Notes under the pieces: generated by a model | What the model was told of the DNA's origin: nothing | The model's input: the letters and a program-made list of their open reading frames with translations, nothing else | Database searches by the model: none | DNA from: an uncultured Dehalococcoidales bacterium | GTDB taxonomy: Bacteria > Chloroflexota > Dehalococcoidia > E44-bin15 | NCBI GenBank assembly: GCA_964443325.1 | Contig: CAYUCL010000006.1 | Coordinates: forward strand, 14,644-78,643 | Direction of reading: 5' to 3' | DNA length: 64,000 bases | Shown: positions 4,690 through 63,915 of the stretch, one piece after another | Layout of the letters: the number at the start of each line of letters is the position of its first letter | How positions within the stretch are numbered: position 1 is the first letter of the stretch | Made by a program: the position numbers and the translations under genes

Positions 4690-4930
4690 TGAGCCTGTCG
4701 AAGGGCCTGTCCTGAGCTGGTTCGAAGGGCTCACCACGAACGGTGTTTGGCTTCGGCCAGATGGAGCAGCAGGGTGGGTGCAGCCCCTGAGCGGAAGGGC
4801 GAAACCCACCATTTCCATCTCCATTTGGGAAGGTGGGTTCCATTTCATTTCACCCACCCTACTTCTGGTTGGAGCCCTTCCGCTGAAGGGCTCCAACCTA
4901 CTCCGATCCTTTTTCCCCCTCCCTCTAACT
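4690..4930. repeat. GC-rich palindromic interspersed repeat (second copy of the 1265-1480 block)
   Basis: GGTTCGAAGGGCTCACCACGAACGGTG...GGGTGGGTG...GAAACCCACCATTTCCATCTCCATTTGGGAAGGTGGGTTCCATTTCATTTCACCCACCCTACTTCTGGTT is nearly identical to 1330-1500. Confidence 0.75.
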
Positions 4931-4960: not shown

Positions 4961-5060
4961 CTCAGGTATTTCGAAGGTCAAATTCAGGGATTATAAACCA
5001 AAACTCAGGGATTTCCCGATTGTGCGCTGAACCGTGACCATTTAGTGTAGGAATGTTCTT
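4961..5060 (+). repeat. URE copy B (three TCAGG(G/T)ATT direct repeats at 22-bp spacing plus the CCCGATTGTGCGCTGAACCGTGACCATTTAGTGTAGGAATG box)
   Basis: Sequence family member. It lies 129 nt upstream of the ATG at 5189. Confidence 0.8.
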
Positions 5061-5188
5061 TAGGGCATGTGAGCAAGTCATCGGGGCGAAACAAGTTTAG
5101 GTGACGACACGTGCCGTACACAGTGCCCACTTATAAATGGCTGGCAGCAGTTGGCCAAAATGTCGCTCGTATTGAGGAGAGATATGAG

Positions 5189-6061
5189 ATGAAAGTCAAG
5201 GATAGGACAACAGAGCAGCAACTCATAAGTGAATTGGTGGAGACTCACCAACAGGTCGCCGAATTGGAGATATCAGAGGCCGAGCACAAGCAACGGGAGG
5301 AGGAACTGAGGGAGCATTTGGAGCGATTGGGAACGATGGTGGAGCGGCGCACCAAAGAGCTCCGGGATGCCCACGAAAAGCTCATTCGCCAGGAGAAGCT
5401 GGTCGTGCTGGGAAAACTGGCTGGCGGCGTGGGCCAAGAACTGCGCAACCCGCTGGAAGCTATCAAGAACGCCGCTTGCTTCCTCAACATGTTCCTGAAA
5501 GAGCCGGAACAGGAGGTAAAGAAGACACTGCATATCCTGGAGAAGGAAGTGGCGGCGTCCCAGAGAATCGTCAGCAGCTTACTCGAATTCGCCCGTCCCA
5601 GGCCCCCTGTTTGGCGAAAGGTGGATATCAACCATGTCATTGAGGAAGCACTGTCTCGCGCTGTGTTGCCGCCGAACATCCAGGTGGTAAGGCAACTGGA
5701 CGAGGCGTTGCCGCCCATCCTGGCTGATCCCTATCAGTTATGCCAGGTCTTCGACAACCTCATTCTCAACGCTATCCAGGCTATGCCCGAGGGCGGGCAG
5801 TTGCTGGTCAAATCGGAAATGCAAAGTCCGGAGCGGGTGTGCGTCTCCATCGCCGATACAGGGGAGGGCATAGCGGAGGAGGACATAGGCGAAATCTTCG
5901 AGCCACTCTTCAGCACCAGGGCTGGAGGTATTGGCCTTGGCTTGACCACTGTCAGGACCATTGTAGAGGGTTATGGAGGCACAATCGGAGCCGAAAGTGA
6001 ACAGGGGCAAGGCAGCACTTTCAGGGTAAACCTGCACAAGGACGGGGTTGGTGCAAAGTAG
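5189..6061 (+). CDS. HisKA-type histidine-kinase-like protein (coiled-coil leader-HisKA-HATPase_c) whose H-box reads GQELRNPL, Gln in place of the phospho-acceptor His
   Basis: The H-box region KLAGGVGQELRNPLEAI has CAA at 5435-5437 where HisKA proteins have His. The N-box (QVFDNLILNAIQA), G1 (DTGEGI) and G2 (GGIGLGL) are intact. No transmembrane segment. ATG at 5189 has an upstream GGAGAG RBS; the ORF-track GTG at 5111 is an alternative. Confidence 0.75.
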   Translation: MKVKDRTTEQQLISELVETHQQVAELEISEAEHKQREEELREHLERLGTMVERRTKELRDAHEKLIRQEKLVVLGKLAGGVGQELRNPLEAIKNAACFLNMFLKEPEQEVKKTLHILEKEVAASQRIVSSLLEFARPRPPVWRKVDINHVIEEALSRAVLPPNIQVVRQLDEALPPILADPYQLCQVFDNLILNAIQAMPEGGQLLVKSEMQSPERVCVSIADTGEGIAEEDIGEIFEPLFSTRAGGIGLGLTTVRTIVEGYGGTIGAESEQGQGSTFRVNLHKDGVGAK

Positions 6062-12167: not shown

Positions 12168-13940
12168 ATGTGCGGAATAGTCGGTTTTGTAGGCAAAAGC
12201 GATGCTGCGCCCAGTGTGCTTAGAGCGCTGAGGAAGCTGGAGTACCGCGGTTATGATTCTGCCGGTATGGCCACCATCAGCAATGGCCACATTTCGTACG
12301 GTAAAGACGTAGGCATGCTCGCAGAGGTGGAGCAAAAACAGGGCCTCGATAAGCTTTCGGGACGGGTTGGGATTGGGCATGTCCGCTGGGCAACTCATGG
12401 TGGCGTTACTCCAATAAATGCGCACCCTCATTTCGACTGCAAGCAGCAGATCGCAGTGGTCCATAACGGGATCGTAGAGAATCACGAGCAACTGCGGCGC
12501 AGACTCAAGAGCGGGCACAATTTCGTCTCCGAAACCGACACCGAGGTGATTCCCCATCTTATTGAAGAGTATATGGAAACGGGCGCCTCTCTTGAGCAGG
12601 CCATGTGCCAGACGGTGAAAGAGCTCAGGGGCTCCTATGCTATCCTTGCCATCTCAGCTAGTGAACCGCAGAAGATAGTTGCTGCCCGCAAGGATAGCCC
12701 TATGGTGGTTGGGGTCGGGGAGGGTGGAAACTACATTGCCAGCGATGCTCTTTGTTTCCTCGATACTACCAATCGAGTTCTGTTCGTTGAAGACGGCGAT
12801 ATCGTCAGTGTGACCAGGGAGAAAGTCACCTTTCTCGATAGCGGCGGTATGGAATTACAGAGAGAGCCGCAGGAAATAGACTGGAAATGGGACGAAGCCA
12901 CAAAGCAGGGTTATGACTTCTTCATGCACAAGGAGATAATGGAGCAACCGCAGGCAGTGCGCTCTGCCCTGATGCAGGACAGGCATTTAATAATGGGAAT
13001 GGCCATGGACATTCTGAGGGCAAGATCGGTGGTGTTTACCGGCTGCGGCACTTCCAGGCATGCCGCCCTCATCGGCAGGTATCTTTTTTCAAAGGTTGGC
13101 GGCAAGCTGAGCGATGTCATAATAGGCTCTGAATTCCATCATTTCTCCGATTCGATTGACAGGAACACCGTGGTGGTAGCCATCTCCCAGAGCGGTGAGA
13201 CCGCCGATGTTCTGGAAGGGGTGAAGAGAGCCAAGGAGAACGGAGCTGCCATATTCTCCGTGGTCAACGTGGTGGGGTCTTCACTGGCCAGGATGAGTGA
13301 CAAGGTCATCTATCTAAACTGCGGTCCTGAGATAGGCGTAGCCGCCAGCAAGACGTTCGTGAGCCAACTGGTAATCTTGTATCTACTGGCTTTTGCTATG
13401 GTAAATAGACTTCGCGAAGGGGTTCGCACCATCAGGGCCATTTCTCCGTTGATAGAGAAGAATTGCAATCACAACGGAGACTCCTTAGAAAAATTGTCTG
13501 TGATACTCAGGGAAAAGAACCAGTTCTATTACATAGCTCGGGGGATAAACTTCGCTATAGCTGCTGAAGCGGCACTGAAGCTCAAGGAGATCGCCTACGT
13601 ATATGCCGAGGGCATGCCCGCCGGGGAGCTGAAGCATGGCAGTTTGGCCTTAATAGAGGAAGGAACTCCAGTAGTGGCGATATGCCCGGCGGATTATACA
13701 TTTGAAGAGACCATGTCCAATGTCGCTGAGGCCAAGGCACGGGGGGCATTTGTCATCGGGGTTTCCGACCGCGACGAAGAGCTCTTTGACAGGTGGATCA
13801 GGATTCCTTCTGTTGGGGAGGTATTGTACCCCTTGGTGAGCATCGTGCCGCTTCAGCTTTTTGCCTATCACTCGGCGGTGGCACGGGGCCTGGACCCCGA
13901 TAAGCCTCGCAACCTGGCGAAGTCGGTGACTGTTAAATAG
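12168..13940 (+). CDS. glmS: Glutamine--fructose-6-phosphate aminotransferase (isomerizing)
   Basis: N-terminal MCGIVGFVG class-II glutamine amidotransferase with Cys2, followed by two SIS domains. 590 aa. The C-terminus ends ...NLAKSVTVK as in GlmS. An RBS GGAGGAAATGGAAGG lies upstream. Confidence 0.9.
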   Translation: MCGIVGFVGKSDAAPSVLRALRKLEYRGYDSAGMATISNGHISYGKDVGMLAEVEQKQGLDKLSGRVGIGHVRWATHGGVTPINAHPHFDCKQQIAVVHNGIVENHEQLRRRLKSGHNFVSETDTEVIPHLIEEYMETGASLEQAMCQTVKELRGSYAILAISASEPQKIVAARKDSPMVVGVGEGGNYIASDALCFLDTTNRVLFVEDGDIVSVTREKVTFLDSGGMELQREPQEIDWKWDEATKQGYDFFMHKEIMEQPQAVRSALMQDRHLIMGMAMDILRARSVVFTGCGTSRHAALIGRYLFSKVGGKLSDVIIGSEFHHFSDSIDRNTVVVAISQSGETADVLEGVKRAKENGAAIFSVVNVVGSSLARMSDKVIYLNCGPEIGVAASKTFVSQLVILYLLAFAMVNRLREGVRTIRAISPLIEKNCNHNGDSLEKLSVILREKNQFYYIARGINFAIAAEAALKLKEIAYVYAEGMPAGELKHGSLALIEEGTPVVAICPADYTFEETMSNVAEAKARGAFVIGVSDRDEELFDRWIRIPSVGEVLYPLVSIVPLQLFAYHSAVARGLDPDKPRNLAKSVTVK

Positions 13941-14062
13941 GGCATAGAAATGTCCAGGCTGTATTTTAATAGATTTAAACGGCGATGTAGAAGTATTCTC
14001 CGGAAGTGATAGGAACACGAGGCCTGTTATATATAACCGCCATCCTGGCGGCAATGAATATC

Positions 14063-14100
14063 GGCTACGTTTAGGTTACTGGACGTAGCCTTCGTTTTTG
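14063..14100 (+). terminator. Candidate rho-independent terminator after glmS
   Basis: GGCTACGT-TTAGGTTACTGG-ACGTAGCC is an 8-bp stem followed by TTCGTTTTTGTGG. Confidence 0.5.
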
Positions 14101-14209
14101 TGGCATGTATCCTCTTCGCCTTGGTAGCAAAAAAGATAGGCTCACTCATAGGAGTGACCCTATCTTAAGGCATGGCTATTATAGTGAGGTGTCTAATGGT
14201 CCTCTTCTT

Positions 14210-14512
14210 CTAAGTGAGGACTTCAATGACCTTCATCACTACAATCATGCCAAAGACCATTAGCAAGGGGGCGATGCCCACACTGAGACGATTCCCCAGC
14301 ATTTGAAATCGCCGCCCCACGCTGGCGCCGGCAAGCTCCTTCGTTGCCAAGAAAGCGATTAGAAGGATGACTGCCACAGCGCCTAACGTAGCCATGGATG
14401 CGACAGAGGCTGTGGTGGTAGTGGTAGTGGTCACCGCACTTGTTACTGCACTTGTTACTGTCGAAATCATTTGTTCACCGCCCTTGTTACTGTTGAAATC
14501 ATTTGCGTTCAT
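14210..14512 (-). CDS. Small hypothetical 2-TM membrane protein with a tandemly repeated Thr-rich N-terminus
   Basis: The ORF reads MNANDFNSNKGGEQMISTVTSAVTSAVTTTTTTTASVAS, then two hydrophobic segments (MATLGAVAVILLIAFLA; VGIAPLLMVFGMIVVMKVI). The 5' end holds nucleotide direct repeats (AAATGATTTC(A/G)ACAGTAACAAG x2; AGTAACAAGTGC x2). The start may be the second ATG at 14470, which has an upstream GGGCGGTG. Confidence 0.4.
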   Translation of the reverse strand: MNANDFNSNKGGEQMISTVTSAVTSAVTTTTTTTASVASMATLGAVAVILLIAFLATKELAGASVGRRFQMLGNRLSVGIAPLLMVFGMIVVMKVIEVLT

Positions 14513-14630
14513 GATAAGGCATGCTTTTAAATTGTGCAATCGGGGAATCCCTGAATTTGTACTTCTAAATACCTGAGTTTGCAGGTAGCTGAAAACATGT
14601 TCGAAGGCTGCATGTGTTACCTGCCGCTGA

Positions 14631-14834
14631 CCGGTCTCCTCGACTTGGTACGCCCAGAAGGCCGACAAGTGCGAGGCGCTCCAGCTTGTAGCTGAAGGCA
14701 AAGCCACAGAGGCGATTATGTACACTCGCTGCGTAGGCGCTATTGGCGTCGAAACGAGCCGTCAACAAACTGCGAACAGGATGAGTATTCGCGGTGTAGG
14801 TGAGCTAACCGAATATGTCATCCTCCACTGTTGA
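14631..14834 (+). pseudogene. Decayed remnant of a LuxR-type HTH (response-regulator C-terminus)
   Basis: The frame translates ...YAQKADKCEALQLVAEGKATEAIMYTRCVGAIGVETSRQQTANRMSIRGVGELTEYVILHC*. This is collinear with [56 protein letters not shown] of the intact regulators. There is no receiver domain and no start. It runs directly into URE copy C. Confidence 0.55.
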
Positions 14835-14940
14835 CCTGTCCTATTGGCGTTATTGCGTGACAGATTCAGGTATTTCGAAGCCCAAAATCAGGGATTTCCT
14901 GATTGTAGACTGAGGTATAACGATGTAGTTTAAGGATGTT
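14825..14940 (+). repeat. URE copy C (CCACTGTTGACCTGTCCTATTGGCGTTATTGCGTGACAG plus two TCAGG(K)ATTTC repeats plus the GATTGTAGACTGAGGTATAACGATGTAGTTTAAGG box)
   Basis: Family member. It lies 230 nt upstream of the ATG at 15171. Confidence 0.8.
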
Positions 14941-15170
14941 AACTACTAGCTTGGGTAGGATTGAATACGATTTGTAGGGTTACGTCATACGGTAAGTCAG
15001 ATCCAGCTAGAAGGTTGTGCTCAGGACTCTTGGTGAGGATTGCGGCATTAGGCACAGCGGAGCTCGATGGCTGAATGTAGATAACCGGTAAGTTACAGTC
15101 GGAGGCGTTATTCAAGGGCCAACCGATTGAGACCTAGCGGCATCGTCCTCTACTGTAGGGAGCGCACAGG

Positions 15171-16253
15171 ATGTTAAAACAGGATGAGATGAAAACGCAA
15201 CTCCTAGATAAGCTGCCAGCATTGTTGCAGCCAACTGCTGAGTTGGAAGCATCAGAAACCGAGCGCAAGCGGGCGGAGGAGGCACTGGAGAAATCCGAAG
15301 GACTGTCCCGAGGCCTGATAGAGGCTGCGACAGTCGGCATATACATTGTCCAAAATGGGAAGTTCCAGTATGTCACCCCAGAATACGCACAGATTTCGGG
15401 TTACACAGTTGATGAGCTTTTAGGGACTTATTCTCTCAATTATATCCACCCGGACGATAAAGAGACGGTCAGAAAGAAAGCAGTAGAGCACCTGAAGGGT
15501 AAGAATGGGATACCCTACAAGTTTAGGCTTGTATGTAAGGACGGCAGGATATTGTGGGGTTTGGAGAAGGTTGCTTCCATCCGGTACAAAGGGAGGCCAG
15601 CAACGGTAGGAAGCTTTAGGGATATCACCGAGCGCAAACAGGCTGAGGAGACGTTCAGACAGAGTTTGGAAAAACTGGAAAGAATATTGGGGCAAACGGT
15701 CAATGCGCTGGCATCGGTGGTCGAATTAAGGGATCCCACAATGGCTGGTCACCAGAGGCGGGTAGCCCACCTGGCGAGCGCTATAGCCAGTGAGATGGGG
15801 CTCCTAGAGGATCAGATTAGTGGAATCTATATGGCCGGGCTTGTTCACGATGTGGGCACGGTATATGTGGCTGAAGAAATCCTCAGAAAGCCCGGTCGGT
15901 TAGATGAGGTTGAATTCAGCATGGTGAAAGTTCAGCCTCAAGCCTCTTACGACATATTGAAGACGATAGAGTTCCCATGGCCGGTTGCCGAGATGGTGCT
16001 TCAGCATCGCGAAAGGATGGATGGGTCTGGCTATCCTGCCGGTTTATCGGGTGAAGATATTCTCCTGGAAGCGAGGATTTTGGGGGTAGCTGAAGTTGTC
16101 GAGGCTATGACCTCCGACCGATCTTACCGACCAGCTCCGGGCATAGATGCAGCCCTGGCTGAGATTTTAAACAACCGGGGCATCCTATATGACCCGGTGG
16201 TGGTAGATACCTACTTGAGGCTCTTCAACGAGAATAGGTTTAAGTTCGAGTAG
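15171..16253 (+). CDS. PAS-HD-GYP domain protein (c-di-GMP phosphodiesterase type) with coiled-coil N-terminal leader
   Basis: Leader MLKQDEMKTQLLDKLPALLQPTAELEASETERKRAEEALEKSE. PAS: GIYIVQNGKFQYVTPEYAQISGY...DITERKQAEE. HD-GYP: HQRRVAHLASAIA...GLVHDVG...HRERMDGSGYPAGLSGEDI. 360 aa. About 85% identical to 18548-19630. Confidence 0.85.
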   Translation: MLKQDEMKTQLLDKLPALLQPTAELEASETERKRAEEALEKSEGLSRGLIEAATVGIYIVQNGKFQYVTPEYAQISGYTVDELLGTYSLNYIHPDDKETVRKKAVEHLKGKNGIPYKFRLVCKDGRILWGLEKVASIRYKGRPATVGSFRDITERKQAEETFRQSLEKLERILGQTVNALASVVELRDPTMAGHQRRVAHLASAIASEMGLLEDQISGIYMAGLVHDVGTVYVAEEILRKPGRLDEVEFSMVKVQPQASYDILKTIEFPWPVAEMVLQHRERMDGSGYPAGLSGEDILLEARILGVAEVVEAMTSDRSYRPAPGIDAALAEILNNRGILYDPVVVDTYLRLFNENRFKFE

Positions 16254-16294
16254 GGGTGGTACGTTCCTGATCGAGTCGCAGGGTTGCACCAGCT

Positions 16295-16603
16295 ATGGTT
16301 GAGCATGTCAACGATTTTCAGACGCTTCCGAAAAACAACTTCAAGAGCAAATATTCTGCTAAGATCATAGATATCTTGGAAAACCCTCAACTGGCCGAGG
16401 CGGACGGCATCTTTGCCACGCCGACAGTGATCAGAACTTGTCTAGTACCAATCAGGAGAATAGTGGGGAGCCTCGGCGAGCAAGAGAAGGTACTGGCGAT
16501 GTTGTATTTGGAGGAGACAAAGCTAGGGTTGGCCGTGTCCGCCTTTGTCGGGCCAGCAGGAAGTCTTCTCTCCTCTTCTGGAGTGAATGTGTCAGCAGCT
16601 TAA
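16295..16603 (+). CDS. KaiB-like protein (lacks the usual first beta-strand; has a roughly 35-aa Gly/Ser-rich C-terminal tail)
   Basis: Residues 20-75 are SAKIIDILENPQLAEADGIFATPTVIRTCLVPIRRIVGSLGEQEKVLAMLYLEE. They align with the KaiB core ([22 protein letters not shown]...PVRRIIGDLS..EKVLIGLDLL); the KaiB sequence is quoted from memory. An in-frame stop at 16268-16270 prevents N-terminal extension. Confidence 0.6.
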   Translation: MVEHVNDFQTLPKNNFKSKYSAKIIDILENPQLAEADGIFATPTVIRTCLVPIRRIVGSLGEQEKVLAMLYLEETKLGLAVSAFVGPAGSLLSSSGVNVSAA

Positions 16604-16700
16604 CTACTATGGGGTAGGTTGGAGCATCCGCTCCAACCACACCTTGAGCCCTTCCGCTGAAGGGCTCAAGGCTACCCTATTTTGGTAGTTGCTTCTGGTG
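16604..16700 (+). repeat. 3'-end hairpin-cluster repeat (TATGGGGTAGGTTGGAGCATCCGCTCCAACCACACCTTGAGCCCTTCCGCTGAAGGGCTCAAGGCTACCCTATTTTGGTA)
   Basis: Two consecutive perfect hairpins (GGTTGGAG/CTCCAACC; GAGCCCTT/AAGGGCTC). The same element follows the KaiB-like remnant at 20040-20140 and the giant gene at 26240-26620 (variant GGTCGGTCGCC-TAA-GGCGACCGACC). Confidence 0.7.
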
Positions 16701-16729
16701 GCTAGCGGTAACAGGCAACAAAAAGGATT

Positions 16730-16900
16730 GAATCGCAGACCGTTCGTGGTGAGCCTGTCGAACCATGAACGGCCCTTCGACAAGCTCAGGACAGGCCCTT
16801 CGACAAGCTCAGGGCAAGCGGATTAAACGCCACCCACCTGCCGGGGGACCGGGGGTGGGCATATGTCATTATGAGTAGGGGCGGGTTTGAAACCCGCCCC
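16730..16900. repeat. GC-rich palindromic repeat (CCGTTCGTGGTGAGCCTGTCGAACCATGAACGG...GGGCGGGTTTGAAACCCGCCCC)
   Basis: Same family as 1265-1480 and 20225-20440. The GGGCGGGTTT(G/C)AAACCCGCCCC hairpin also occurs at 26700-26730. Confidence 0.7.
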
Positions 16901-17021
16901 TCGCCAGAGTCGACGCCAAGGTCTCCATAGGCGACTCGCCGTGGCGAGCGCCTGCCTTTGGCAGAGTCTTCGACTACTGTTGGTTTCACTGGAATCGAAA
17001 TAATCTAGATGACCAAGACCC

Positions 17022-17195
17022 TATCGACTTCACTTTTCCTCCGACTTATGCCTAAACTCCCACTGTTGATCTGTCCTATTGGCGTTCTTGCGTGACAAAC
17101 TCAGGTGTTTCGAAGCCCAAATTCAGGTATTACAGGCCATAAATCAGGGGTTTCCCGATTGTTCAGTTAAGCATCACGATGTAATGTAGGAATGT
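17022..17195 (+). repeat. URE copy D (extended form with the 5' TTTTCCTCCGACTTATGCC...CCACTGTTGATCTGTCCTATTGGCG arm, three direct repeats and the ATGTAATGTAGGAATG box)
   Basis: Family member. A kinase remnant and then the orphan LuxR regulator lie downstream. Confidence 0.8.
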
Positions 17196-17199
17196 GGGC

Positions 17200-17615
17200 A
17201 ATTAACTTGGGTAAAAAAAGGCGACAATGCTGGAGGAGATACCAAGAACGAAAGGCAAAGCAAGCGAAAATGATACCGTTCTTGAAGGACTGGACCGCGG
17301 GTTACTACTGGATGCCATCAACCTCAAAGGACATACAAGATGGCGTCCTTGTTTTCCTTTGGGTCCGATCTGCTCCATACTTGCGGATCGGACCCACTTG
17401 AACAAGGGGACAGCCGGCACCGCGTGGAGGCAGACTGCGTTGGGAGTTGCACATGGGCTTGGTGCATAGGGTATGCAAAGATGAAGTGAGAAGACCGCGA
17501 CGAGCGCTGGAGCTGTACATGCGTTGTGAACTCGAATCCAAGCTCGCCCATACAACGCGGGTCACCCGTGTCGTGCCGATCGGGCATGTTGAAGAGAACA
17601 TAGGGGGCAACTAAG
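17200..17615 (+). pseudogene. Decayed histidine-kinase C-terminal remnant immediately upstream of the orphan LuxR regulator
   Basis: The frame ending at 17613-17615 (TAA) reads ...RVTRVVPIGHVEENIGGN*, collinear with ...GTWVTLVAPLESGGESTGGN* and ...GTRVILVAPLDCSDESEQGH* of the intact kinases. Further upstream DRGLLLDAINLKGH resembles the N-box region RGLLFWVVRELLLNVVKH. There is no intact ORF or start. Confidence 0.5.
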
Positions 17616-18269
17616 TTGAGTGTGAGAGTTATACTTGCAGACGACCACAGGATCATTCGCGAGGGGCTCCGCGCCATGCTTGAGAAGGAGCCCGACATGG
17701 AGGTGGTTGCCGAAGCGGATAATGGGCGAGCAGCGGTAGAGCTGGCGCGGGAGCTAAAGCCCGACATCATCGTCATGGACCTTACCATGCCTGAATTGAA
17801 CGGTATTGAGGCCACTCGACAGATCCTCGCCAGTGACCCCGGTGTCAAGGTACTTGCCCTGTCAATGCATTCAGACAAACGTTTTGTCACCGGAGTGCTC
17901 AGTGCGGGTGCATCGGGCTATCTATTAAAGGACTGTGCATTGGAGGAGCTGGTGCGGGCGATCCGCGCCGTGGTCGCAGACCAGACCTATCTGAGTCCGG
18001 GAATAGCTGGCATTGTGGTCGACGACTACATGCATCGCCTGCCACCGACCGACGACTGCACTTTGTCCGCCCTGACGGCAAGGGAGCGCGAGGTGCTACA
18101 GCTTATAGCTGAAGGCAAGGCCCTAAAGGAGATTGCATCCACTCTCAACTTGAGTGTTAAGACTATTGAAACACACCGCCAGCAAATCATGAAGCGGTTG
18201 GACATACACAGTGTAGCTGAACTCACCAAATATGCCATCCGCGAAGGACTGACCTCCCTCGAAAGCTGA
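17616..18269 (+). CDS. NarL/LuxR-family response regulator (orphan; third paralog)
   Basis: TTG start with AGGGGG 9 nt upstream. MSVRVILADDHRIIREG...IIVMDLTMPELNG...TAREREVLQLIAEGKALKEIASTLNLSVKTIETHRQQIMKRL. 217 aa. Confidence 0.85.
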   Translation: MSVRVILADDHRIIREGLRAMLEKEPDMEVVAEADNGRAAVELARELKPDIIVMDLTMPELNGIEATRQILASDPGVKVLALSMHSDKRFVTGVLSAGASGYLLKDCALEELVRAIRAVVADQTYLSPGIAGIVVDDYMHRLPPTDDCTLSALTAREREVLQLIAEGKALKEIASTLNLSVKTIETHRQQIMKRLDIHSVAELTKYAIREGLTSLES

Positions 18270-18299
18270 CCTCCCATCTGTGGGGGACTCCACCACCAC

Positions 18300-18420
18300 C
18301 GTTGCCCTTTCCTAATCATGTCCCTGAGTTACCATCTCAGGTATTTCGAAGCCCAAAATCAGGGATTCCCCGCCCAAACTCAGGCGTTTCCCGATTGTGC
18401 ACTGGGTCGTAAGGGTGTAT
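18300..18420 (+). repeat. URE copy E (three direct repeats plus CCCGATTGTGCACTGGGTCGTAAGGGTGTATTTTACAC)
   Basis: Family member. It lies 128 nt upstream of the ATG at 18548. Confidence 0.75.
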
Positions 18421-18547
18421 TTTACACATATCACATATAATAGAGACGAGCCTGAGCGAACAGGTTGAAATGGCGGCGGCGGCCACGTACCGACCGGTGA
18501 GTTGGGAGGATACGTGTCCGTAATTATGTTTTTTGGTGGGACAAGAG

Positions 18548-19630
18548 ATGGTAAAGCAACATACGGCGAAAGAGCAAGTCACAAACGAGTTGGCGGCGTT
18601 GCAGCAGCGAATCAGTGAACTGGAAGCAGCGGAAGCCGAGCACAAGCGAGTGGAGGAGGCACTCAGGGAATCTGAAGAACTGTCGCGAGGCCTGATCGAG
18701 GCGGCCACAGTCGGCACATACATTGTCCAGGATGGAAAATTCCAGTATATCAACCCGGAGTACGCACAGATTTCAGGTTACACCGCGGATGAGCTTCTGA
18801 TGACATATTCCCTCGATTACGTCCACCCTGACGACAGAGAGGCAGTCAGGACGAAGGCGATAGAGCACCTGAAGGGCCGCGATAGGAGATCCTACGAGTT
18901 CAGGCTTGTGCGCAAGGATGGGGAGATACGGTGGATTCTGGAGAGGGTCGCTTCCATCCCTTACAAAGGGCAGCGAGCAACGATAGGAAGCTTTATGGAT
19001 ATCAGCGAGCGCAAGCGGGCGGAGGAAGCGCTCAGATACAATGTTGAAAGACTGCAAAGAATGCTGGGGCAGACGGTTGGTGTGCTGGCATCAGTTGTTG
19101 AAGTGAGGGACCCCACCACCGCTGGTCACCAGCGGCGAGTGGCCCACCTGGCGAGTGCCATAGCCAGCGAGATGGGCCTAATAGCGGATCAGATCACTGG
19201 AATCTATATGGCCGGGCTTGTTCACGATGTGGGAGCGATATATACCCCCAGCGATATCCTCACTAAGCCGGGCCGGCTGGACGATGCTGAATTCAGCATG
19301 GTGAAAGACCAGCCGCGGGTCTCCTATGACATATTGAAGATGATAGAGTTCCCGTGGCCGGTGGCCGAAGTGGTCCTCCAGCACCGAGAAAGGATGGACG
19401 GGTCTGGCTATCCTGCTGGTCTATCGGGCGAAGATATCCTGCTTGAGGCGAGGATTCTGGGCGTGGCCGACGTGGTGGAGGCCATGACCTCCGACCGCCC
19501 CTACCGTCCGGCTCCGGGCATAGATGTAGCCCTGGAGGAGATCTCAAAGAACCGGGGCATCCTGTATGACCCGGTGGTGGTAGATACCTGCTTGAGTCTC
19601 TTCAACGAGAAGAAGTTCAAGTTTGAGTAG
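18548..19630 (+). CDS. PAS-HD-GYP domain protein (paralog of 15171-16253)
   Basis: Leader MVKQHTAKEQVTNELAALQQRISELEAAEAEHKRVEEALRESEE, then a PAS domain and an HD-GYP domain (HQRRVAHLASAIASEMGL...HRERMDGSGYPAGLSGEDI). ATG at 18548 has GGTGGG upstream; the ORF-track TTG at 18533 is an alternative. Confidence 0.85.
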   Translation: MVKQHTAKEQVTNELAALQQRISELEAAEAEHKRVEEALRESEELSRGLIEAATVGTYIVQDGKFQYINPEYAQISGYTADELLMTYSLDYVHPDDREAVRTKAIEHLKGRDRRSYEFRLVRKDGEIRWILERVASIPYKGQRATIGSFMDISERKRAEEALRYNVERLQRMLGQTVGVLASVVEVRDPTTAGHQRRVAHLASAIASEMGLIADQITGIYMAGLVHDVGAIYTPSDILTKPGRLDDAEFSMVKDQPRVSYDILKMIEFPWPVAEVVLQHRERMDGSGYPAGLSGEDILLEARILGVADVVEAMTSDRPYRPAPGIDVALEEISKNRGILYDPVVVDTCLSLFNEKKFKFE

Positions 19631-19639
19631 GGGGGTGGA

Positions 19640-19870
19640 GGTGTAAATCCCGATCGAGTCGCAGGGTTACGCCGCCCATAGTTGAGTATGTCAGCGGTCA
19701 CCTCGAGACGAGCGTGGCATTTCACCAAGGCCTAGGGAACTTGGTGCTCAAGGTCAGTGCCGCCGACGGTGGTCAGGACCCGCCCGGCTCCAGTCAGGAG
19801 AATAGTGGGGAGCCTCGGCGAACCAGAGAAGGTAATGGCGATATTGTGTTCGGAGGAGACGAGCTAGTAC
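19640..19870 (+). pseudogene. Frameshifted, decayed KaiB-like remnant (paralog of 16295-16603)
   Basis: The nucleotide stretch CCAGTCAGGAGAATAGTGGGGAGCCTCGGCGAACCAGAGAAGGTAATGGCGATATTGTGTTCGGAGGAGAC matches 16445-16515 of the KaiB-like gene. It reads VRRIVGSLGEPEKVMAIL only in a frame different from the surrounding ORF, and no intact ORF remains. Confidence 0.45.
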
Positions 19871-20224
19871 TAGAGCGCCCAGATATGATCGTGGCAATTA
19901 CAAGGATCGGGTCAGTTGAAAAATGTAGTTGCCCAATTCATTGGGTTGGTCGATATATGTCATTTGTTGATCTGTCCTATCCGCCTTTGTCGGCACAGGA
20001 GGAGGTCTTATCTCCTCTTTATGGAGTGAATATGGCAGCCGCTTAACCTATATGGGGTAGGTTGGAGCATCCGCTCCAACCACACCTTGAGCAAATGCCC
20101 GACAGGGTCGGATCATTCGACTCAAGGCTACCCTATTTGGGTAAGCGCCCCGATATGATCGGGGCAACTACAGTTACTGCTGGTGGCTAGCGGTAATAGG
20201 CAACAAAAAGGAATGAGTCGCAGA

Positions 20225-20344
20225 CCGTTCGTGGTCAGCTTTACACCGTTCGTGGTCAACTGTATACCATTCGTGGTGAACTGTACACCGTTCGTGGTGA
20301 ACTGTACACCGTTCGTGGTGAACTGTACACCGTTCGTGGTGAGC
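20225..20344 (+). repeat. 21-bp tandem repeat, about 5.5 copies of CCGTTCGTGGTGAACTGTACA
   Basis: Units at 20225, 20246, 20267, 20288, 20309 and 20330 with 0-4 mismatches. The same 21-mer is single-copy in the paralogous spacer at 16750. Confidence 0.85.
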
Positions 20345-20459
20345 TTGTCGAACCATGAACGGCCCTTCGGTGAACTCAGGACAGGCCCTTCGACAAGCTC
20401 AGGGCAAACGGACTAAACGCCACCCACTTTCCGGGTGTCTGGGGGTAGGCATATGTCAA

Positions 20460-20590
20460 TCGTTGACCTGTCCTATTCGCCTTCTTGATTGACAGACTCA
20501 GGTGTTTCGAAGGTAAAAATCAGGGATTCCACGACCGAACTCAGGGATTTCCCGATTGTGGGCTGAGCCATAACAATGTAGTGTAGGCAT
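20460..20590 (+). repeat. URE copy F (TTGACCTGTCCTATTCGCCTTCTTGATTGACAG plus three TCAGG(K)ATT(T/C)C repeats at 22/21-bp spacing plus the CCCGATTGTGGGCTGAGCCATAACAATGTAGTGTAGGCATG box)
   Basis: This is the best-preserved full-length copy. The giant sensor gene lies downstream. Confidence 0.8.
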
Positions 20591-20658
20591 GAGTGTAACT
20601 AACTAGAAAAAACCATCTACGGTTAGGAAGATTCCAGTACGATGGCGGGGGCTGCTAT

Positions 20659-20895
20659 ATGAAGAGCTGGTTATCTATGGGCCTTTCTCATAGGGGAGAG
20701 GCTTTATATTTTTTAGGTGGTATCGGTGGTGTTGTGCTTCAGACTATGGAGCGTCGCTATTCCGCGACACCCAAACAGGCTGAAAGCGTGTCGGCAGCGA
20801 ATCTATTGGATGAGGTGATATATCGTCACATCAAAACGGGTGACGGGCTGTGGTTGCCTGAAATTGCCGCTCTTTTTAGGAGGCACACGAAATGA
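20659..20895 (+). CDS. Hypothetical 78-aa protein in the leader of the giant sensor gene (stop overlaps its ATG as ATGA)
   Basis: ORF MKSWLSMGLSHRGEALYFLGGIGGVVLQTMERRYSATPKQAESVSAANLLDEVIYRHIKTGDGLWLPEIAALFRRHTK. I recognise no known domain. A weak GGCGGGGG lies upstream. It could be non-coding 5'-UTR. Confidence 0.25.
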   Translation: MKSWLSMGLSHRGEALYFLGGIGGVVLQTMERRYSATPKQAESVSAANLLDEVIYRHIKTGDGLWLPEIAALFRRHTK

Positions 20896-23800
20896 AAGAT
20901 CAACACAAGACAAAAGAGCAACTCATTAAGGAATTGGCGCAGATGCGCCAGCGACTCGCTGAATGTAAAGTATCAGAAGCCGAGCGAAAGCGGGTGGAGG
21001 AGGAAGTAAAGCAACTGAGTTCTGCTGTTGATCAGTCCATTGACGGCATAGCCATAGGTGACCTTGAACCGAAGATGACGTATGTCAACGATGCCTTTGC
21101 CCAGATGCACGGCTACTCGCCCGAGGAAATGATGGGGATGAAAGTTGCGAACCTGCACAACGAGGAACAGATGGACGAGTTCAAAACGGGTATCGATCAG
21201 ATAATGACGCAGGGTTCATGGATGGGTGAAATAGGGCATGTTAGAAAGGATGGAGCGCCTTTTCCCACATACATGTCGGTTACTTTGTTGAAGGATAGCG
21301 ACGGCAATCCGACAGGAATTGTGGCAGTTGCAAGAGACATCACCGAGCGCAAGCGGGCGGAGGGGGCGCTGCGGGAGTCGGAGGAGAAGTTCTCCAAGGC
21401 CTTTCGTTCCAGCCCTATCCCGATGGTTATTGCGGTGCTTGAAGATGGACGCGCTATCGATGTAAACGAAAGTCTTTTACATATGACCGGCTATTGTCGC
21501 GAAGAGTTCAGAGGTCGGAAGAGGGGCGAACTGGGTTTCTGGGTAAATCCAGAGAACCATGCCAGAATAGTGCAGATATTGCGTGACCAGGGGCAGATTC
21601 GCGATAGAGAGGAGGAGTATCGCATAAAGTCGGGCGAGATCCGTACCGCGCTGACTTCAGCAGAGATAGTTCACATTGGCGATGAACTGTGCGCGCTCTA
21701 CGTACTCAATGACATCACCGAGCGAAAGCGGGCGGAGGAGGCGCTGCGTGAGACTGAGAACCGCTACAAGGCCATCTTTGATAACCGGCTGCAGATGGTC
21801 TACATCAATGATGGCAAGGGGCTTTTTCTTGACGCCAACGATTACGCTCTGGAGCGGCTAGGATACACTCGCGATGATCTTGGAAAGGTCTCGTTCCAGG
21901 ACATGATCCATCCAGACGACCTTCCAGCGATACTACAAGTTTTTTCAGAGATCTTGACCAAGGGCTCCATGGAACGCTCTATTGAAATTCGCCTCGTTAC
22001 CAAATCCGGAGAGATAATCTGGGTTGAGACTTTCGGCATTCCCCTTGAGCGCGATGTTGACCATTATATGGCTCTGGGTATTGCAAATGACATCACCGAG
22101 CGCAAGAAGGCAGAGGAGGCGCTGCGGGAGAGCGAGGAAAAATATCGCCATGTGGTCGAGCGGGCAAATGACGGCATTCTGATTATTCAGGATGGGACAA
22201 TCAAGTATGCCAATCGGCGTGCGGAGGAATTAAGCGGGTACATTTTTGCACAGACCACTGAGGCGCAGTTTATTAATTATCTCCATCCCGATGAAATTCC
22301 CAAAGTGGTTGAGCGATACCAGCGACGTATGGCAGGGGAGGATGTCGAACCGGTATATGAGACGATTATGAGGCGCGAAGACGGCAGTGATATATATGTC
22401 GAGATCAATGCAGGAACAATTTCATATCGGGGAGAACCGGCGGATCTTGTTTTCATCCACGACATCACCGAGCGCAAGCAGGCAGAGCAGGCGTTGAGGC
22501 AGTCCGAGTACAAATTTAGAACTGCCCTTGAGTCGGCAAGGGATGGCATCCTCATAACTAGTAACGATGGCTCAGTGGTGGACATCAACAGGACGTTGCT
22601 GAACGCTTTGGGATACGATTCTAAGGAGCAAGTCATCGGTAGAAACTCTCTTGAGCTTCTTGCGGTCGAGCGATCCCAAAAGCAACTGGATGGCGTGCGA
22701 CGGGAGATGGCTCAAAAAGGCCACATTAGCAACGTGGAGTTAATGGGACTCACCCGCGATGGTAGAAAGGTGCCGGTTGAGGTAACCGTCTCCAACATGA
22801 CTGACGACGAAGGGCAGCCTGCAGGGTCTATTGTTGTAATAAGGGATATCACCCAACGCAAGAGGGCTGAGGAGGCGCTGAAGGAGTCGGAGGAGTTGTC
22901 CCGGGGAATGCTGGAGGCCGCAACGATCGGTATATACATCGTCCAGGATGGGAAATTCCAGTATGTCAACCCGCAGTTCGAGCACATAGGGGGCTACACT
23001 GCGGATGACTTTTTAGGGAAAGATTCTCTCGAGCATGTCCACTCTGAAGATAGAGAGATGGTCAGGAAGAAAGCGATAGAGCAATTAAAGGGACAGAGTA
23101 CCCAGCCATATGAGTACAGGTTTATATGTAAGGGCGGAGGGGAATTGTGGATACTGGAGAAGGTCAGTTCCATCCAGTATAAAGGGAAACCGGCGGCGAT
23201 CGGGAGCTTTATAGACATCACCGAGCGCAAGCAGGCGGAGGGGAAGCTAGAACGTTTGAACCTCGTGCTTCGCACCATCGGCGACGTCAACCAGCTCATC
23301 GCTAAAGAAAAGGACCGCGACAAGCTGATTAAAGCGACCTGCGACGCCTTCCTCGAGCATAGCAGTTACTATAATGCCTGGATGGCCCTGTTTGATGAGT
23401 CAGGAGAGCTTGTTGCCACTGCCGAAGCTGGCCTGGGCAATAATTTCCTGCCAATGGTAGACCAGCTCAAGCGTGGTCAGTTGACCAAATGCGGGCGCAG
23501 GGCGCTGAGGCAATCGGGCGTTGTGGTAACCAAAGACCCGTCTTCAACATGTCGTGATTGCTCATTAGCGGACAAGTACCCAGGCAGAGCGGCCATCACC
23601 ACCCGGATAGAATACGAAGGAAGGGTCTACGGCCTGCTGTCCGCCTCGATGCCACGAGCTTTCATCACGGAGGAACAAGAGCTATCCCTGTTCAAAGAGG
23701 TTGCCGCCGACATCGCTTTCGCCCTCTACACCATAGAACTGGAGGTGGAGCGCAAGCGGATGGAGGAGGCACTTCGGGAGAGCGAGGAGAGGCTCAGGGC

Positions 23801-26186: not shown

Positions 26187-26884
26187 TCCCTTGGAAGTCC
26201 TCCCCACCATAGCGGGAGTAGCGTCGCCATTTAATCTCTCTGTGGGGTAGGTCGGTCGCCTAAGGCGACCGACCACACCTTGAGCACCCCGATTTGTCAA
26301 CGATATGTCATTCTGAGGGAGGCCGAGGAAAGCGGGGGCGACCGAAGAATCTTAGGAAAGGCGGGCGGGAATAGATCCTCCCTCCCCTGGCGGGAGGCGA
26401 GTCGCCTTTGGAGACTGGCGGGAGGGTCCTTCCCTGGAAGGAGAGGGAGGGGGAACTTCACCCTCACCCTCGCCCTCTCCTCGCCAGAGTTCGCATCAGG
26501 CGACCCTTCAAGGGAGAGGGGATAGAAGAGAGCATCCGCTCCAACCACGCCTTGAGCCCTTCAGCGGAAGGGCTCAAGGCTATCCTGTTTTGGTAAGCGC
26601 CCCGATATGGTCGGGGCAACTATTAAAGAAAGGGGGGGTGAAAAATGTAGTTGCCCATCCTTCTTTGAAGGATTGGGCGTGCGGGCATATATCATTATGA
26701 GTAGGGGCGGGTTTCAAACCCGCCCCTACAATTAGTTACACGAGGCCCGAAGAACCTCCACCCCACCGAGACTCTTCCCCTTCACAAAGAGAAGGGACTC
26801 AGAATAACAGTGATGATGGGCGGGCAACCAGCAATATATCTCCAAGGTATTGGACGACAACACCTATAAAATCCTATCACACTG

Positions 26885-27030
26885 ATTTTTCCTACCACTT
26901 ATGCCACAGCTTCCACTGTTGACCTGTCCTATTCGACTTCTTGATTGACAAGACTCAGGTGTTTCGAAGGCACAAATCAGGGATTTCCCGATTGTGCACT
27001 GAGCTATCATGTTGTAGTTTGGGCATATTA
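26885..27030 (+). repeat. URE copy G (extended 5' arm, two direct repeats, CCCGATTGTGCACTGAGCTATCATGTTGTAGTTTGGG box)
   Basis: Family member. It lies 85 nt upstream of 27116. Confidence 0.8.
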
Positions 27031-32089: not shown

Positions 32090-32328
32090 GGTGCAGGGGC
32101 TGGCCTAGAGTACACAAGGCGACAACTCATAGCTAAAGGCCAGTCCCCAAAGGATACCACAGACGATCATAGCACGAGCGCTGAGACTAATGATACTTAT
32201 CGCCAGCACATCATGGACAGGTTTAACATTCTTGGCGTAGCCTATCTCCCCAAATATATCTTCTCAGAAGTATTGCTTTCCCTAGGAGACTAACCCCGCA
32301 TTAGTTTAGAACGCCGCATCCACCGTAG

Positions 32329-32450
32329 ACCTATCCTGTTCGCCTTCATAGATGATGCCCTCAGGTATTTCGAAGTCTAAACTCAGGGATTTCACCCCCG
32401 AACTCAGGGATTTCCCGATTGTAGGCTTGGCCATAAGCGTATAGTTTAGG
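32329..32450 (+). repeat. URE copy H (GACCTATCCTGTTCGCCTTC arm plus three TCAGG(G/T)ATTTC repeats at 22/21-bp spacing plus CCCGATTGTAGGCTTGGCCATAAGCGTATAGTTTAGGAGG)
   Basis: It ends 5 nt before ATG 32455, the first gene of the + arm of the glycan cluster. Confidence 0.8.
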
Positions 32451-63109: not shown

Positions 63110-63365
63110 GACTCCCCCTAAAGATTTGGGTACCTCGAATTTCCAACAATTAAGTGCGTTTATTCCCGATGTGGCAGGTCATTTGTCTGGAGTTTTAACC
63201 CCGCCGGCGTAGCTATCACAACTCGACGGTAACACCAAAGCCACGTGACTTTGCCCTATGAGAATATGCGAATTTTGCCTTTCTGGAGCAGGATGTTACA
63301 TCTCTAGCTCTACTTGCCCGACTCAGTTGCTCACGTGCCTAAACTACTGCGTAATGGAGCGCCGC

Positions 63366-63410
63366 GCAATCGGGAAATACCTGAGTTAGGGCTTCGAAAT
63401 ACCTGAGTTG
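63366..63410 (-). repeat. URE copy J in reverse orientation (reverse complement reads CTCAGGTATTTCGAAGCCCTAACTCAGGTATTTCCCGATTGCGCGGCGCTCCATTACGCAGTAGTTTAGG)
   Basis: It is the only copy on the - strand. It lies about 230-260 bp upstream, in the - sense, of the first - strand glycan gene, whose start is at 63109. Confidence 0.75.
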
Positions 63411-63799
63411 GTCATGGAGGAATGCGGATGTAGGAAGTGGTTGGCTCCCTGAACCTTCTCCGGTGTGTGGTTGCCGTTAAGGCCTCATACGTCAGCATGT
63501 TAGTGTGGCTTTAAAAAGCCATATGTCGGTTCCTGGGGGTATTCCTTAATGAGACGAGTTAGTGATTTACGCACGCAGATTAGTAATGCTTTGCTATGAC
63601 GTTGCTTCGGATAGAAGCGGATTCTTTCCTGTTTCTTCCACGCTTTCTCTTCGTGTTACAGCTCTATCTGGGCCGATTCGTGCCCATTGCATATGAGGTG
63701 AAACAATCCCAGGTAATTTGATACTCAAAGTGTAGCCCTAGCTAACCAATCATATCATCCAGGAAGGATGGGATTACCCAGAAGACAAACTCCGTCTCT

Positions 63800-63915
63800 G
63801 CTATCAACATATCCTGTTTGTGTTCTTTGGAGATAAACTCAGGTTTTTCGAAGACCAAACTCAGGGATTTCCTGATTGTGCGCTGAGCCAATTACCGGGA
63901 TTATGGGATGCAAAG
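63800..63915 (+). repeat. URE copy K (two direct repeats plus CTGATTGTGCGCTGAGCCAATTACCGGGATTATGGGATG box)
   Basis: Oriented towards a + strand gene beyond the window end. It is divergent from copy J. Confidence 0.7.

Follow-up and report, generated by a model that had tools for sequence, protein, structure and literature searches.

A KaiB-like open reading frame beside a PAS-HD-GYP gene in an uncultured Dehalococcoidales bacterium is very probably a kaiB pseudogene relic

The N-terminal domain of SasA, a kinase, adopts a thioredoxin fold like that of KaiB and competes for KaiC. For KaiB itself, lengths of ~102 aa and ~250 aa are reported, with no mention of a short N-truncated class, and in the data set of the same survey it occurs only alongside full-length KaiC (Schmelling et al., 2017, PMC5520375). 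Of the five compared loci of KaiB relatives with enough flanking sequence, four (L087, L091, L092 and L093) have kaiC immediately after kaiB and a PAS histidine kinase gene after that. At L088, a full-length kaiB adjoins a gene pair for a kinase and a response regulator, the contig ending inside the gene. At L089 (6352-10187), an orphan full-length kaiB with no kaiC adjacent is flanked by one gene for a PAS histidine kinase and one for a PAS-kinase-GGDEF hybrid, and a response regulator gene comes next.

Here we analyzed a stretch of 64,000 nucleotides (the window), in which a KaiB-like open reading frame (ORF) lies downstream of a gene for a PAS-HD-GYP protein. The ORF is homologous to the KaiB of kaiB-kaiC operons over the end of alpha1, beta2 and the C-terminal half, including the motifs ENPQLAE, ATPT and P-x-RRI-x-G. 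In contrast to these proteins it is without beta1 and the G-x-T loop, carries replacements of about nine nearly invariant residues and a frameshift-derived tail, and has no adjacent kaiC and a disabled paralogue and orthologue. With the N-terminal domain of SasA it shares only the general idea of an interaction module; the SasA domain is complete, with all strands, whereas the fold of the ORF is incomplete and an interaction is unsupported. As at L089, a kaiB sequence stands beside PAS sensor genes (at L089 one with a GGDEF domain) and no kaiC lies next door, but the protein at L089 is a full-length KaiB (Pfam positions 1-81 of 82, 67.9 bits) and its neighbors are histidine kinases rather than HD-GYP proteins. 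Like bacterial gene relics, the locus shows loss of the start codon, nonsense and frameshift lesions that differ by copy and strain, beside a gene under purifying selection; unlike them, in the window strain the sequence is an open frame, long enough for a gene call and for the Pfam threshold.

KaiB homology of the ORF and its missing N-terminus

The upstream gene and the ORF comprise the following features:

15171-16253, plus strand: PAS-HD-GYP gene, copy A, 360 aa, intact (Pfam HD_5 E 2e-36, HD, PAS_3)
16254-16294, plus strand: junction between the HD-GYP stop codon and the kaiB-like sequence, with an in-frame TGA at 16268-16270
16295-16603, plus strand: KaiB-like ORF, 102 aa
16295-16297, plus strand: start codon ATG of the ORF, derived from ATA (ATA in L094 and in copy B)
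16319-16504, plus strand: KaiB-homologous core, residues 9-70 (end of alpha1, beta2, C-terminal half; Pfam PF07689 positions 19-80 of 82)
16519-16526, plus strand: A-run AAA (16519-16521) with a derived additional A, and ancestral stop TAG (16524-16526), now out of frame, from a three-way alignment
16517-16603, plus strand: tail of 28 aa rich in Gly, Ser, Ala and Val, and TAA, read through by the frameshift
16604-17215, no strand: intergenic region with REP-like repeats, within the duplicated block (hairpins 16618-16639 and 16645-16666, upstream element 17040-17215)

The earlier note on this DNA had recognized the ORF as KaiB-like, and the Pfam KaiB profile PF07689 bears this out (E 2.2e-14, 53.4 bits, cut-off 27). 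ORF residues 9-70 align to profile positions 19-80; a complete KaiB domain (positions 1-82) was not found in the ORF, which lacks the first ~18 profile positions, corresponding to beta1 and the beginning of alpha1. Solved KaiB structures are matched with E values of 1e-13 to 1e-15 over the PDB chains, the best being KaiB 5jwq_B (E 1.9e-15; query 10-74 against chain 30-94), and the core is 54% identical to P0002, the closest full-length relative. The beta1 and loop segment K-L-Y-V-x-G-x-T, present in 38 of 38 aligned relatives, is absent from the ORF, and no recognizable beta1-coding segment lies upstream in any frame, neither in copy A nor in the second copy (copy B, below). The claim that beta1 is absent and that a stop at 16268 blocks extension agrees with the TGA at 16268-16270 and with a profile match that starts at position 19. 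The gap from the HD-GYP stop codon to the ORF measures 41 nt. A fusion of HD-GYP and KaiB, or frameshifted translation across the junction, was considered and is ruled out: the frames differ, and both TAG 16251-16253 and TGA 16268-16270 lie between the two.

All 10 invariant KaiB columns are retained in the ORF, and about nine nearly invariant ones are substituted, including Pro to Leu at residue 50, GDL to GSL and GLD to MLY. Over its 62 positions the KaiB core of copy A scores ~0.86 bit per position, comparable to divergent full-length KaiBs, so that copy A has decayed only modestly. An extra Gly/Ser-rich tail had been described as 35 aa long. The tail is present, but its length is not 35: the part without KaiB homology comprises 28 aa (residues 75-102). 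No homolog covering the tail was found, the coverage by homologs reaching at most 84%.

Structure prediction of the ORF with AlphaFold2, from an alignment of 36 KaiB sequences, did not yield a confident KaiB or thioredoxin-like fold (mean pLDDT 49.4, pTM 0.27, no residue at 70 or above), whereas the full-length control P0002, predicted from the same alignment, reached a pLDDT of 70.5 (77-88 over beta1-alpha1-beta2) and a pTM of 0.57. As supporting evidence only, the low-confidence model agrees with the loss of a central strand. Upstream of the ORF the only purine-rich stretch is AGGG at about -15, compared with a GGAG-type site at -6 to -13 for most confident genes of the window. A simple scan of 16254-16700 found no promoter- or terminator-like feature, and searches of 13900-21000 against the RNA families of Rfam gave chance-level matches only.

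A duplicated block and the lesions of its kaiB-like sequences

The second block and the gene between the two blocks comprise the following features:

17616-18269, plus strand: NarL/LuxR-type response regulator between the blocks (Pfam Response_reg and GerE)
18548-19630, plus strand: PAS-HD-GYP gene, copy B, 360 aa from ATG (Pfam HD_5 E 8e-38)
19648-19867, plus strand: kaiB relic, copy B, degraded (ATA 19678-19680; deletions of 18, 12 and 11 nt; TAG 19865-19867 in frame)
19763-19861, plus strand: core remnant of the copy B relic, PPTVVRTRPAPVRRIVGSLGEPEKVMAILCSEE (tblastn with the ORF, E 3e-10)
19868-19979, no strand: insertion of repeat fragments in copy B, ~112 nt (hairpin motif 19874-19902, fragment of the upstream element 19955-19987)
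19980-20046, plus strand: counterpart in copy B of the copy A tail region, from the homology between the blocks

A frameshifted second copy at about 19640-19870, and duplication of the PAS-HD-GYP and KaiB-like unit as a block, had both been proposed, and both proposals stand. In addition to the tblastn match to the core remnant, the junction at 19648-19696 is homologous to that of copy A at 16265-16313, with 82% identity. The homology extends from ~15171-17207 in block A to ~18548-20604 in block B, a duplicated block of roughly 2 kb, whose PAS-HD-GYP genes share 80% nucleotide and 75% amino-acid identity. The frame of the copy B relic is shifted by its 11-nt deletion, the deletions of 18 and 12 nt being present as well. 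The same junction between HD-GYP gene and kaiB sequence is common to copy A, copy B and the sister strain L094; since both copies share it, the N-terminal truncation is older than the duplication.

L094, the one orthologous locus available from another strain, is a 2.9-kb ENA contig with 2.8x coverage that encodes the second member of the upstream HD-GYP protein's cluster. Over 1396 nt, which cover the HD-GYP gene and the relic, it shares 95.3% identity with the window, the similarity stopping at ~16552. Its HD-GYP gene is intact and differs from copy A at 45 of 1080 nt (pS 0.093, pN 0.026). With a pN/pS of 0.28 against L094 and 0.21 against copy B, PAS-HD-GYP copy A is under purifying selection. 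In the L094 relic, by contrast, ATA stands in place of ATG, CAA has become TAA at codon 63, and a frameshift of +2 nt follows codon 66; 13 of 198 ungapped positions differ from the window (6.6%, vs. 4.2% in the HD-GYP gene). With paralogue B frameshifted as well, neither an intact ortholog of the relic nor purifying selection on it was found in this comparison. At 2.8x coverage single lesions in L094 could be sequencing errors, but this is unlikely because three lesions lie beside an intact 1083-nt ORF and because ATA is also found in copy B. The dN/dS between the relics of copies A and B is 0.41, over only 32 alignable codons and with one of the copies dead.

The polarity of the lesions was determined from a three-way alignment of copy A, its L094 ortholog and paralogue B. 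As ATA is common to L094 and paralogue B, the ATG of the window is derived. The extra A at 16519-16521 is likewise unique to the window, L094 and copy B being one base shorter. Without this base, copy A reads ACA AGC TAG, an ending "…EETS" followed by a stop that is still present in copy B at 19865-19867, and this TAG and the stop in P0002 are equally distant from the conserved core. The Gly/Ser tail is thus read-through of formerly non-coding DNA, because the derived additional A skips the ancestral stop. The near-invariant Pro codon 50 reads CTA in the window, CAA in L094 and CCG in copy B, and has been altered independently in the window and in L094. Together with the ~9 replaced nearly invariant positions, this suggests from the sequence comparison that constraint on the ORF is relaxed. 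All indels within the KaiB-homologous part are in copy B or L094 and none is in copy A, a weak asymmetry of 3-4 events.

The ORF protein is encoded on seven contigs of one population (one NCBI MAG and sediment metagenomes) and the frame is open in all of them. They are identical in nucleotides here, and a comparison of six contigs over the region gave 100% identity save for one 21-nt repeat unit.

Parts of the two blocks resemble each other more than expected. Identity between copy A and copy B is 82% for 16265-16313 against 19648-19696 and 83-90% for the 3' part of the relic with the tail, of which 16457-16600 is about 87-90% identical to its counterpart within 19799-20046. In the adjoining HD-GYP genes, 54 of 123 four-fold sites differ (44%; pS 0.45), with a pS of 0.22 over the last 30 codons. 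The junction and the 3' part of the relic are therefore more alike between the blocks than the divergence of the adjoining genes predicts. A gene-conversion tract from ~16160 to 16760, or a constrained 3' UTR, would each account for this excess; the end of the L094 similarity at ~16552 argues against a conserved hairpin region downstream. The still fairly good core of copy A could reflect either slow decay or recent conversion.

Genomic surroundings and related loci

A dense signaling island, in which genes for kinases, response regulators and GGDEF/HD-GYP proteins are interrupted by glmM, glmU and glmS, occupies the first 31 kb of the window. Both PAS-HD-GYP genes match the HD_5/HD profile, and HD and GSGYP are present in their translations. 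The usual HD-GYP motif is HHExxDGxGYP. Relative to it, both small paralogues read QHRERMDGSGYP, with the second His replaced by Arg. Copy B is followed by a gene for a 1764-aa multi-PAS-GAF-GGDEF-HD-GYP protein, which has HHHEWCNGTGYP at this motif. The coiled-coil-like N-terminal leader of HD-GYP copy B (18529-18656) shows 72% nucleotide identity to the start of the 1764-aa gene (20873-21000), and an internal PAS domain of the large protein closely resembles that of the small paralogues. These resemblances suggest that domains may have been shuffled among the sensors of the island.

The spacers of this region are rich in repeats. The motif AGCGCCCnGATATGATCGnGGCAAyTACA, which forms a hairpin, occurs at 19874-19902 and 20144-20172 in block B and not in block A; as the first of these copies is part of the insertion that breaks up the kaiB relic of copy B, the motif may be a small mobile repeat. 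An intergenic element of ~100-175 nt is present in at least 10 copies, nearly all just upstream of the next gene and on the same strand. Its copies in the window lie at 1540-1644, 4961-5056, 14822-14957, 17040-17215, 18276-18450, 20437-20610, 26897-27026, 32320-32450, 63314-63425 (minus strand) and 63812-63890, and another is found at 2160-2311 of L017. The genes downstream encode sensor kinases, both HD-GYP proteins, the NarL regulator and a glycosyltransferase. The invariant cores of the element are TCAGGTnTTTCGAAG and AAnTCAG..TT.CC.GATTG, corresponding to 2-3 direct TCAGG-N-TTTC repeats. The copy in another Dehalococcoidia MAG is 91% identical over 152 nt, although the adjacent protein is only 64% identical, and Rfam returned no match for the element. 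It may represent a MITE, a repeat that carries a promoter, or a series of binding sites for a regulator.

A tandem array at 20203-20366, in the spacer that follows block B, comprises ~6-7 copies of a 21-nt unit, ACCGTTCGTGGTGAACTGTAC. The copy number varies, since exactly one such unit distinguishes the NCBI MAG contig L001 from the window. REP-like GC-rich hairpins, such as GGTTGGAGC-ATCC-GCTCCAACC, are located at 16618-16639, 16645-16666 and 16857-16901, with further copies at 4872-4901, 26530-26595 and 26683-26727 and, in a related MAG (L021), at 5085-5265. Translated repeats of the type SLSNHERPFDKLRTG, at 16729-16868 and 20319-20458, are part of the same repeat-rich spacers.

As the earlier note had stated, the window contains no kaiC: a tblastn search of the 64 kb with a KaiC gave a best E value of 0.25. 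Its suggestion of a c-di-GMP phosphodiesterase paired with a KaiB-like adaptor, to be sought as a co-occurring gene pair in related genomes, did not fare as well. A one-genome-per-species scan with both HD-GYP paralogues yielded 80 loci, mostly from MAGs of the Dehalococcoidia/Chloroflexota and of the Smithella type, about 14 of them with full-length PAS-HD-GYP matches. KaiB-like sequence was found at none of the 80 within 6-kb flanks, nor at any of three metagenome loci of the closest single-PAS HD-GYP relatives (56-61% identity) within 3-kb flanks. The pair is thus not syntenic at these 83 loci; in addition, the L094 counterpart is disabled, and the start codon and tail of the ORF are derived.

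Among 5.8 billion clustered proteins the ORF product forms a singleton cluster, the next match being 54% identical and full length. A HMMER search of 1.84 billion cluster representatives retrieved 1398 KaiB-like proteins, of which only the ORF itself had an E value below 1e-30. Neither collection contains another intact ORF with the same truncation; the L094 sequence is truncated alike but disabled. A conserved family of N-truncated KaiBs is accordingly rejected, as the cluster is a singleton and no group shares the truncation or the tail. The few short KaiB matches among the representatives look like fragments cut at contig ends. Contig L090, which encodes P0002, carries a second kaiB 5' fragment at ~108-170 (MTMYELKLYVIGRTPKSVEVI, terminated by a stop) about 150 nt upstream of the kaiB at 312-584, and this is another kaiB duplication followed by decay. 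In the literature searched, KaiB and HD-GYP were linked in incidental co-mentions only.

Origin of the ORF and its implications

The reading that we consider very probable is that ORF 16295-16603 is a non-functional kaiB relic, carried along in the ~2-kb segmental duplication and decaying in each copy. The ancestral kaiB probably belonged to a two-component or kaiBC-type signaling cluster. Its 5' end, with beta1 and the following loop, would have been lost where the relic now abuts the 3' end of the PAS-HD-GYP gene; no kaiC now lies beside it. The relic was then duplicated, along with the HD-GYP gene before it and the repeat-rich spacer behind it, as the ~2-kb block described above, and the relics have since decayed separately, as copy B and L094 show. 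Copy B gained its deletions and an insertion built from fragments of repeats that occur elsewhere in the window, and the L094 ortholog of copy A gained its nonsense codon and frameshift. In copy A of the window, as the polarity of both changes shows, a chance ATG and the stop-skipping insertion of one base opened an accidental frame of 102 codons, which gene callers annotate as KaiB. The product of the ORF, if made at all, would be without function, and we propose that nothing at the locus works beyond the HD-GYP genes. Several observations weigh against this reading: the well-scoring core of copy A, the frame that is open and identical on seven contigs, the weak asymmetry of the indels, the low coverage of L094, and the close similarity between the 3' parts of the two relics, which calls for gene conversion or for some constraint on the nucleotides.

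The truncated protein might instead be a working adaptor of the upstream PAS-HD-GYP phosphodiesterase, the pair having been duplicated as a functional unit. The order of HD-GYP gene and KaiB-like sequence does occur twice, the KaiB core is still recognizable, and L089 illustrates that a KaiB homolog may be surrounded by sensor kinase and GGDEF genes and need not have kaiC next to it. However, one of the two units, copy B, is plainly dead, and the L094 ortholog is dead despite a conserved HD-GYP gene, which already contradicts an adaptor. Moreover, the start codon is a strain-specific novelty, beta1 is missing from a predicted structure of low confidence, and the pairing is absent from the 83 related loci, so that we regard a working adaptor as very unlikely. 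It is just as improbable, in our estimate, that the gain of ATG and the additional base resurrected the relic in this strain as a newly translated small protein with a new role. The two derived mutations jointly open the 102-codon frame, and the ORF has reached fixation in the population sampled, but this population is without variation at the ORF, the ribosome-binding signal upstream is weak, the fold is of low confidence and the tail of low complexity, and two chance mutations in neutral DNA account for the ORF equally well. We likewise see very little prospect that the re-opened 102-aa fragment without beta1 is translated and binds the upstream PAS-HD-GYP protein, or a KaiC encoded elsewhere in the genome; if it did, a pseudogene would have been recycled into a new signaling adaptor.

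A role at the level of RNA or DNA, with the 3' half of the relic and the hairpins acting as the 3' UTR of the HD-GYP transcript or as a terminator, is compatible with the pseudogene verdict and, although unlikely, somewhat easier to entertain. It would fit the conservation of 16457-16600 and 16265-16313 between the copies, against the pS of 0.45 in the adjoining genes, and the GC-rich hairpins at 16618-16639 and 16645-16666 that come next downstream. Yet the hairpin region is not conserved in L094, the hairpins are multi-copy REP-like repeats that also occur elsewhere in the window, neither an Rfam match nor a terminator-like site was found in the searches above, and a gene-conversion tract over ~16160-16760 gives the same pattern, including the lowered pS in the last 30 HD-GYP codons. 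Nothing specific favors the truncation of a full-length kaiB by misassembly or sequencing error, and the same junction in seven independently assembled contigs, in paralogue B and in L094 makes such an artifact extremely improbable.

With the pseudogene reading preferred, the ORF is a pseudogene fragment of a well-known family and not a member of a functional KaiB class, an ordinary finding. Should some residual function be real, it would be an example of a re-opened pseudogene. The locus matters mainly as a caution for annotation: the ORF passes the Pfam KaiB threshold and public assemblies list it as a gene, so that automated pipelines would record a KaiB lacking KaiC, which invites stories of a clock-like adaptor in c-di-GMP signaling. 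The orphan KaiB of L089, in a signaling cluster related to c-di-GMP, would be a better site for testing the adaptor idea.
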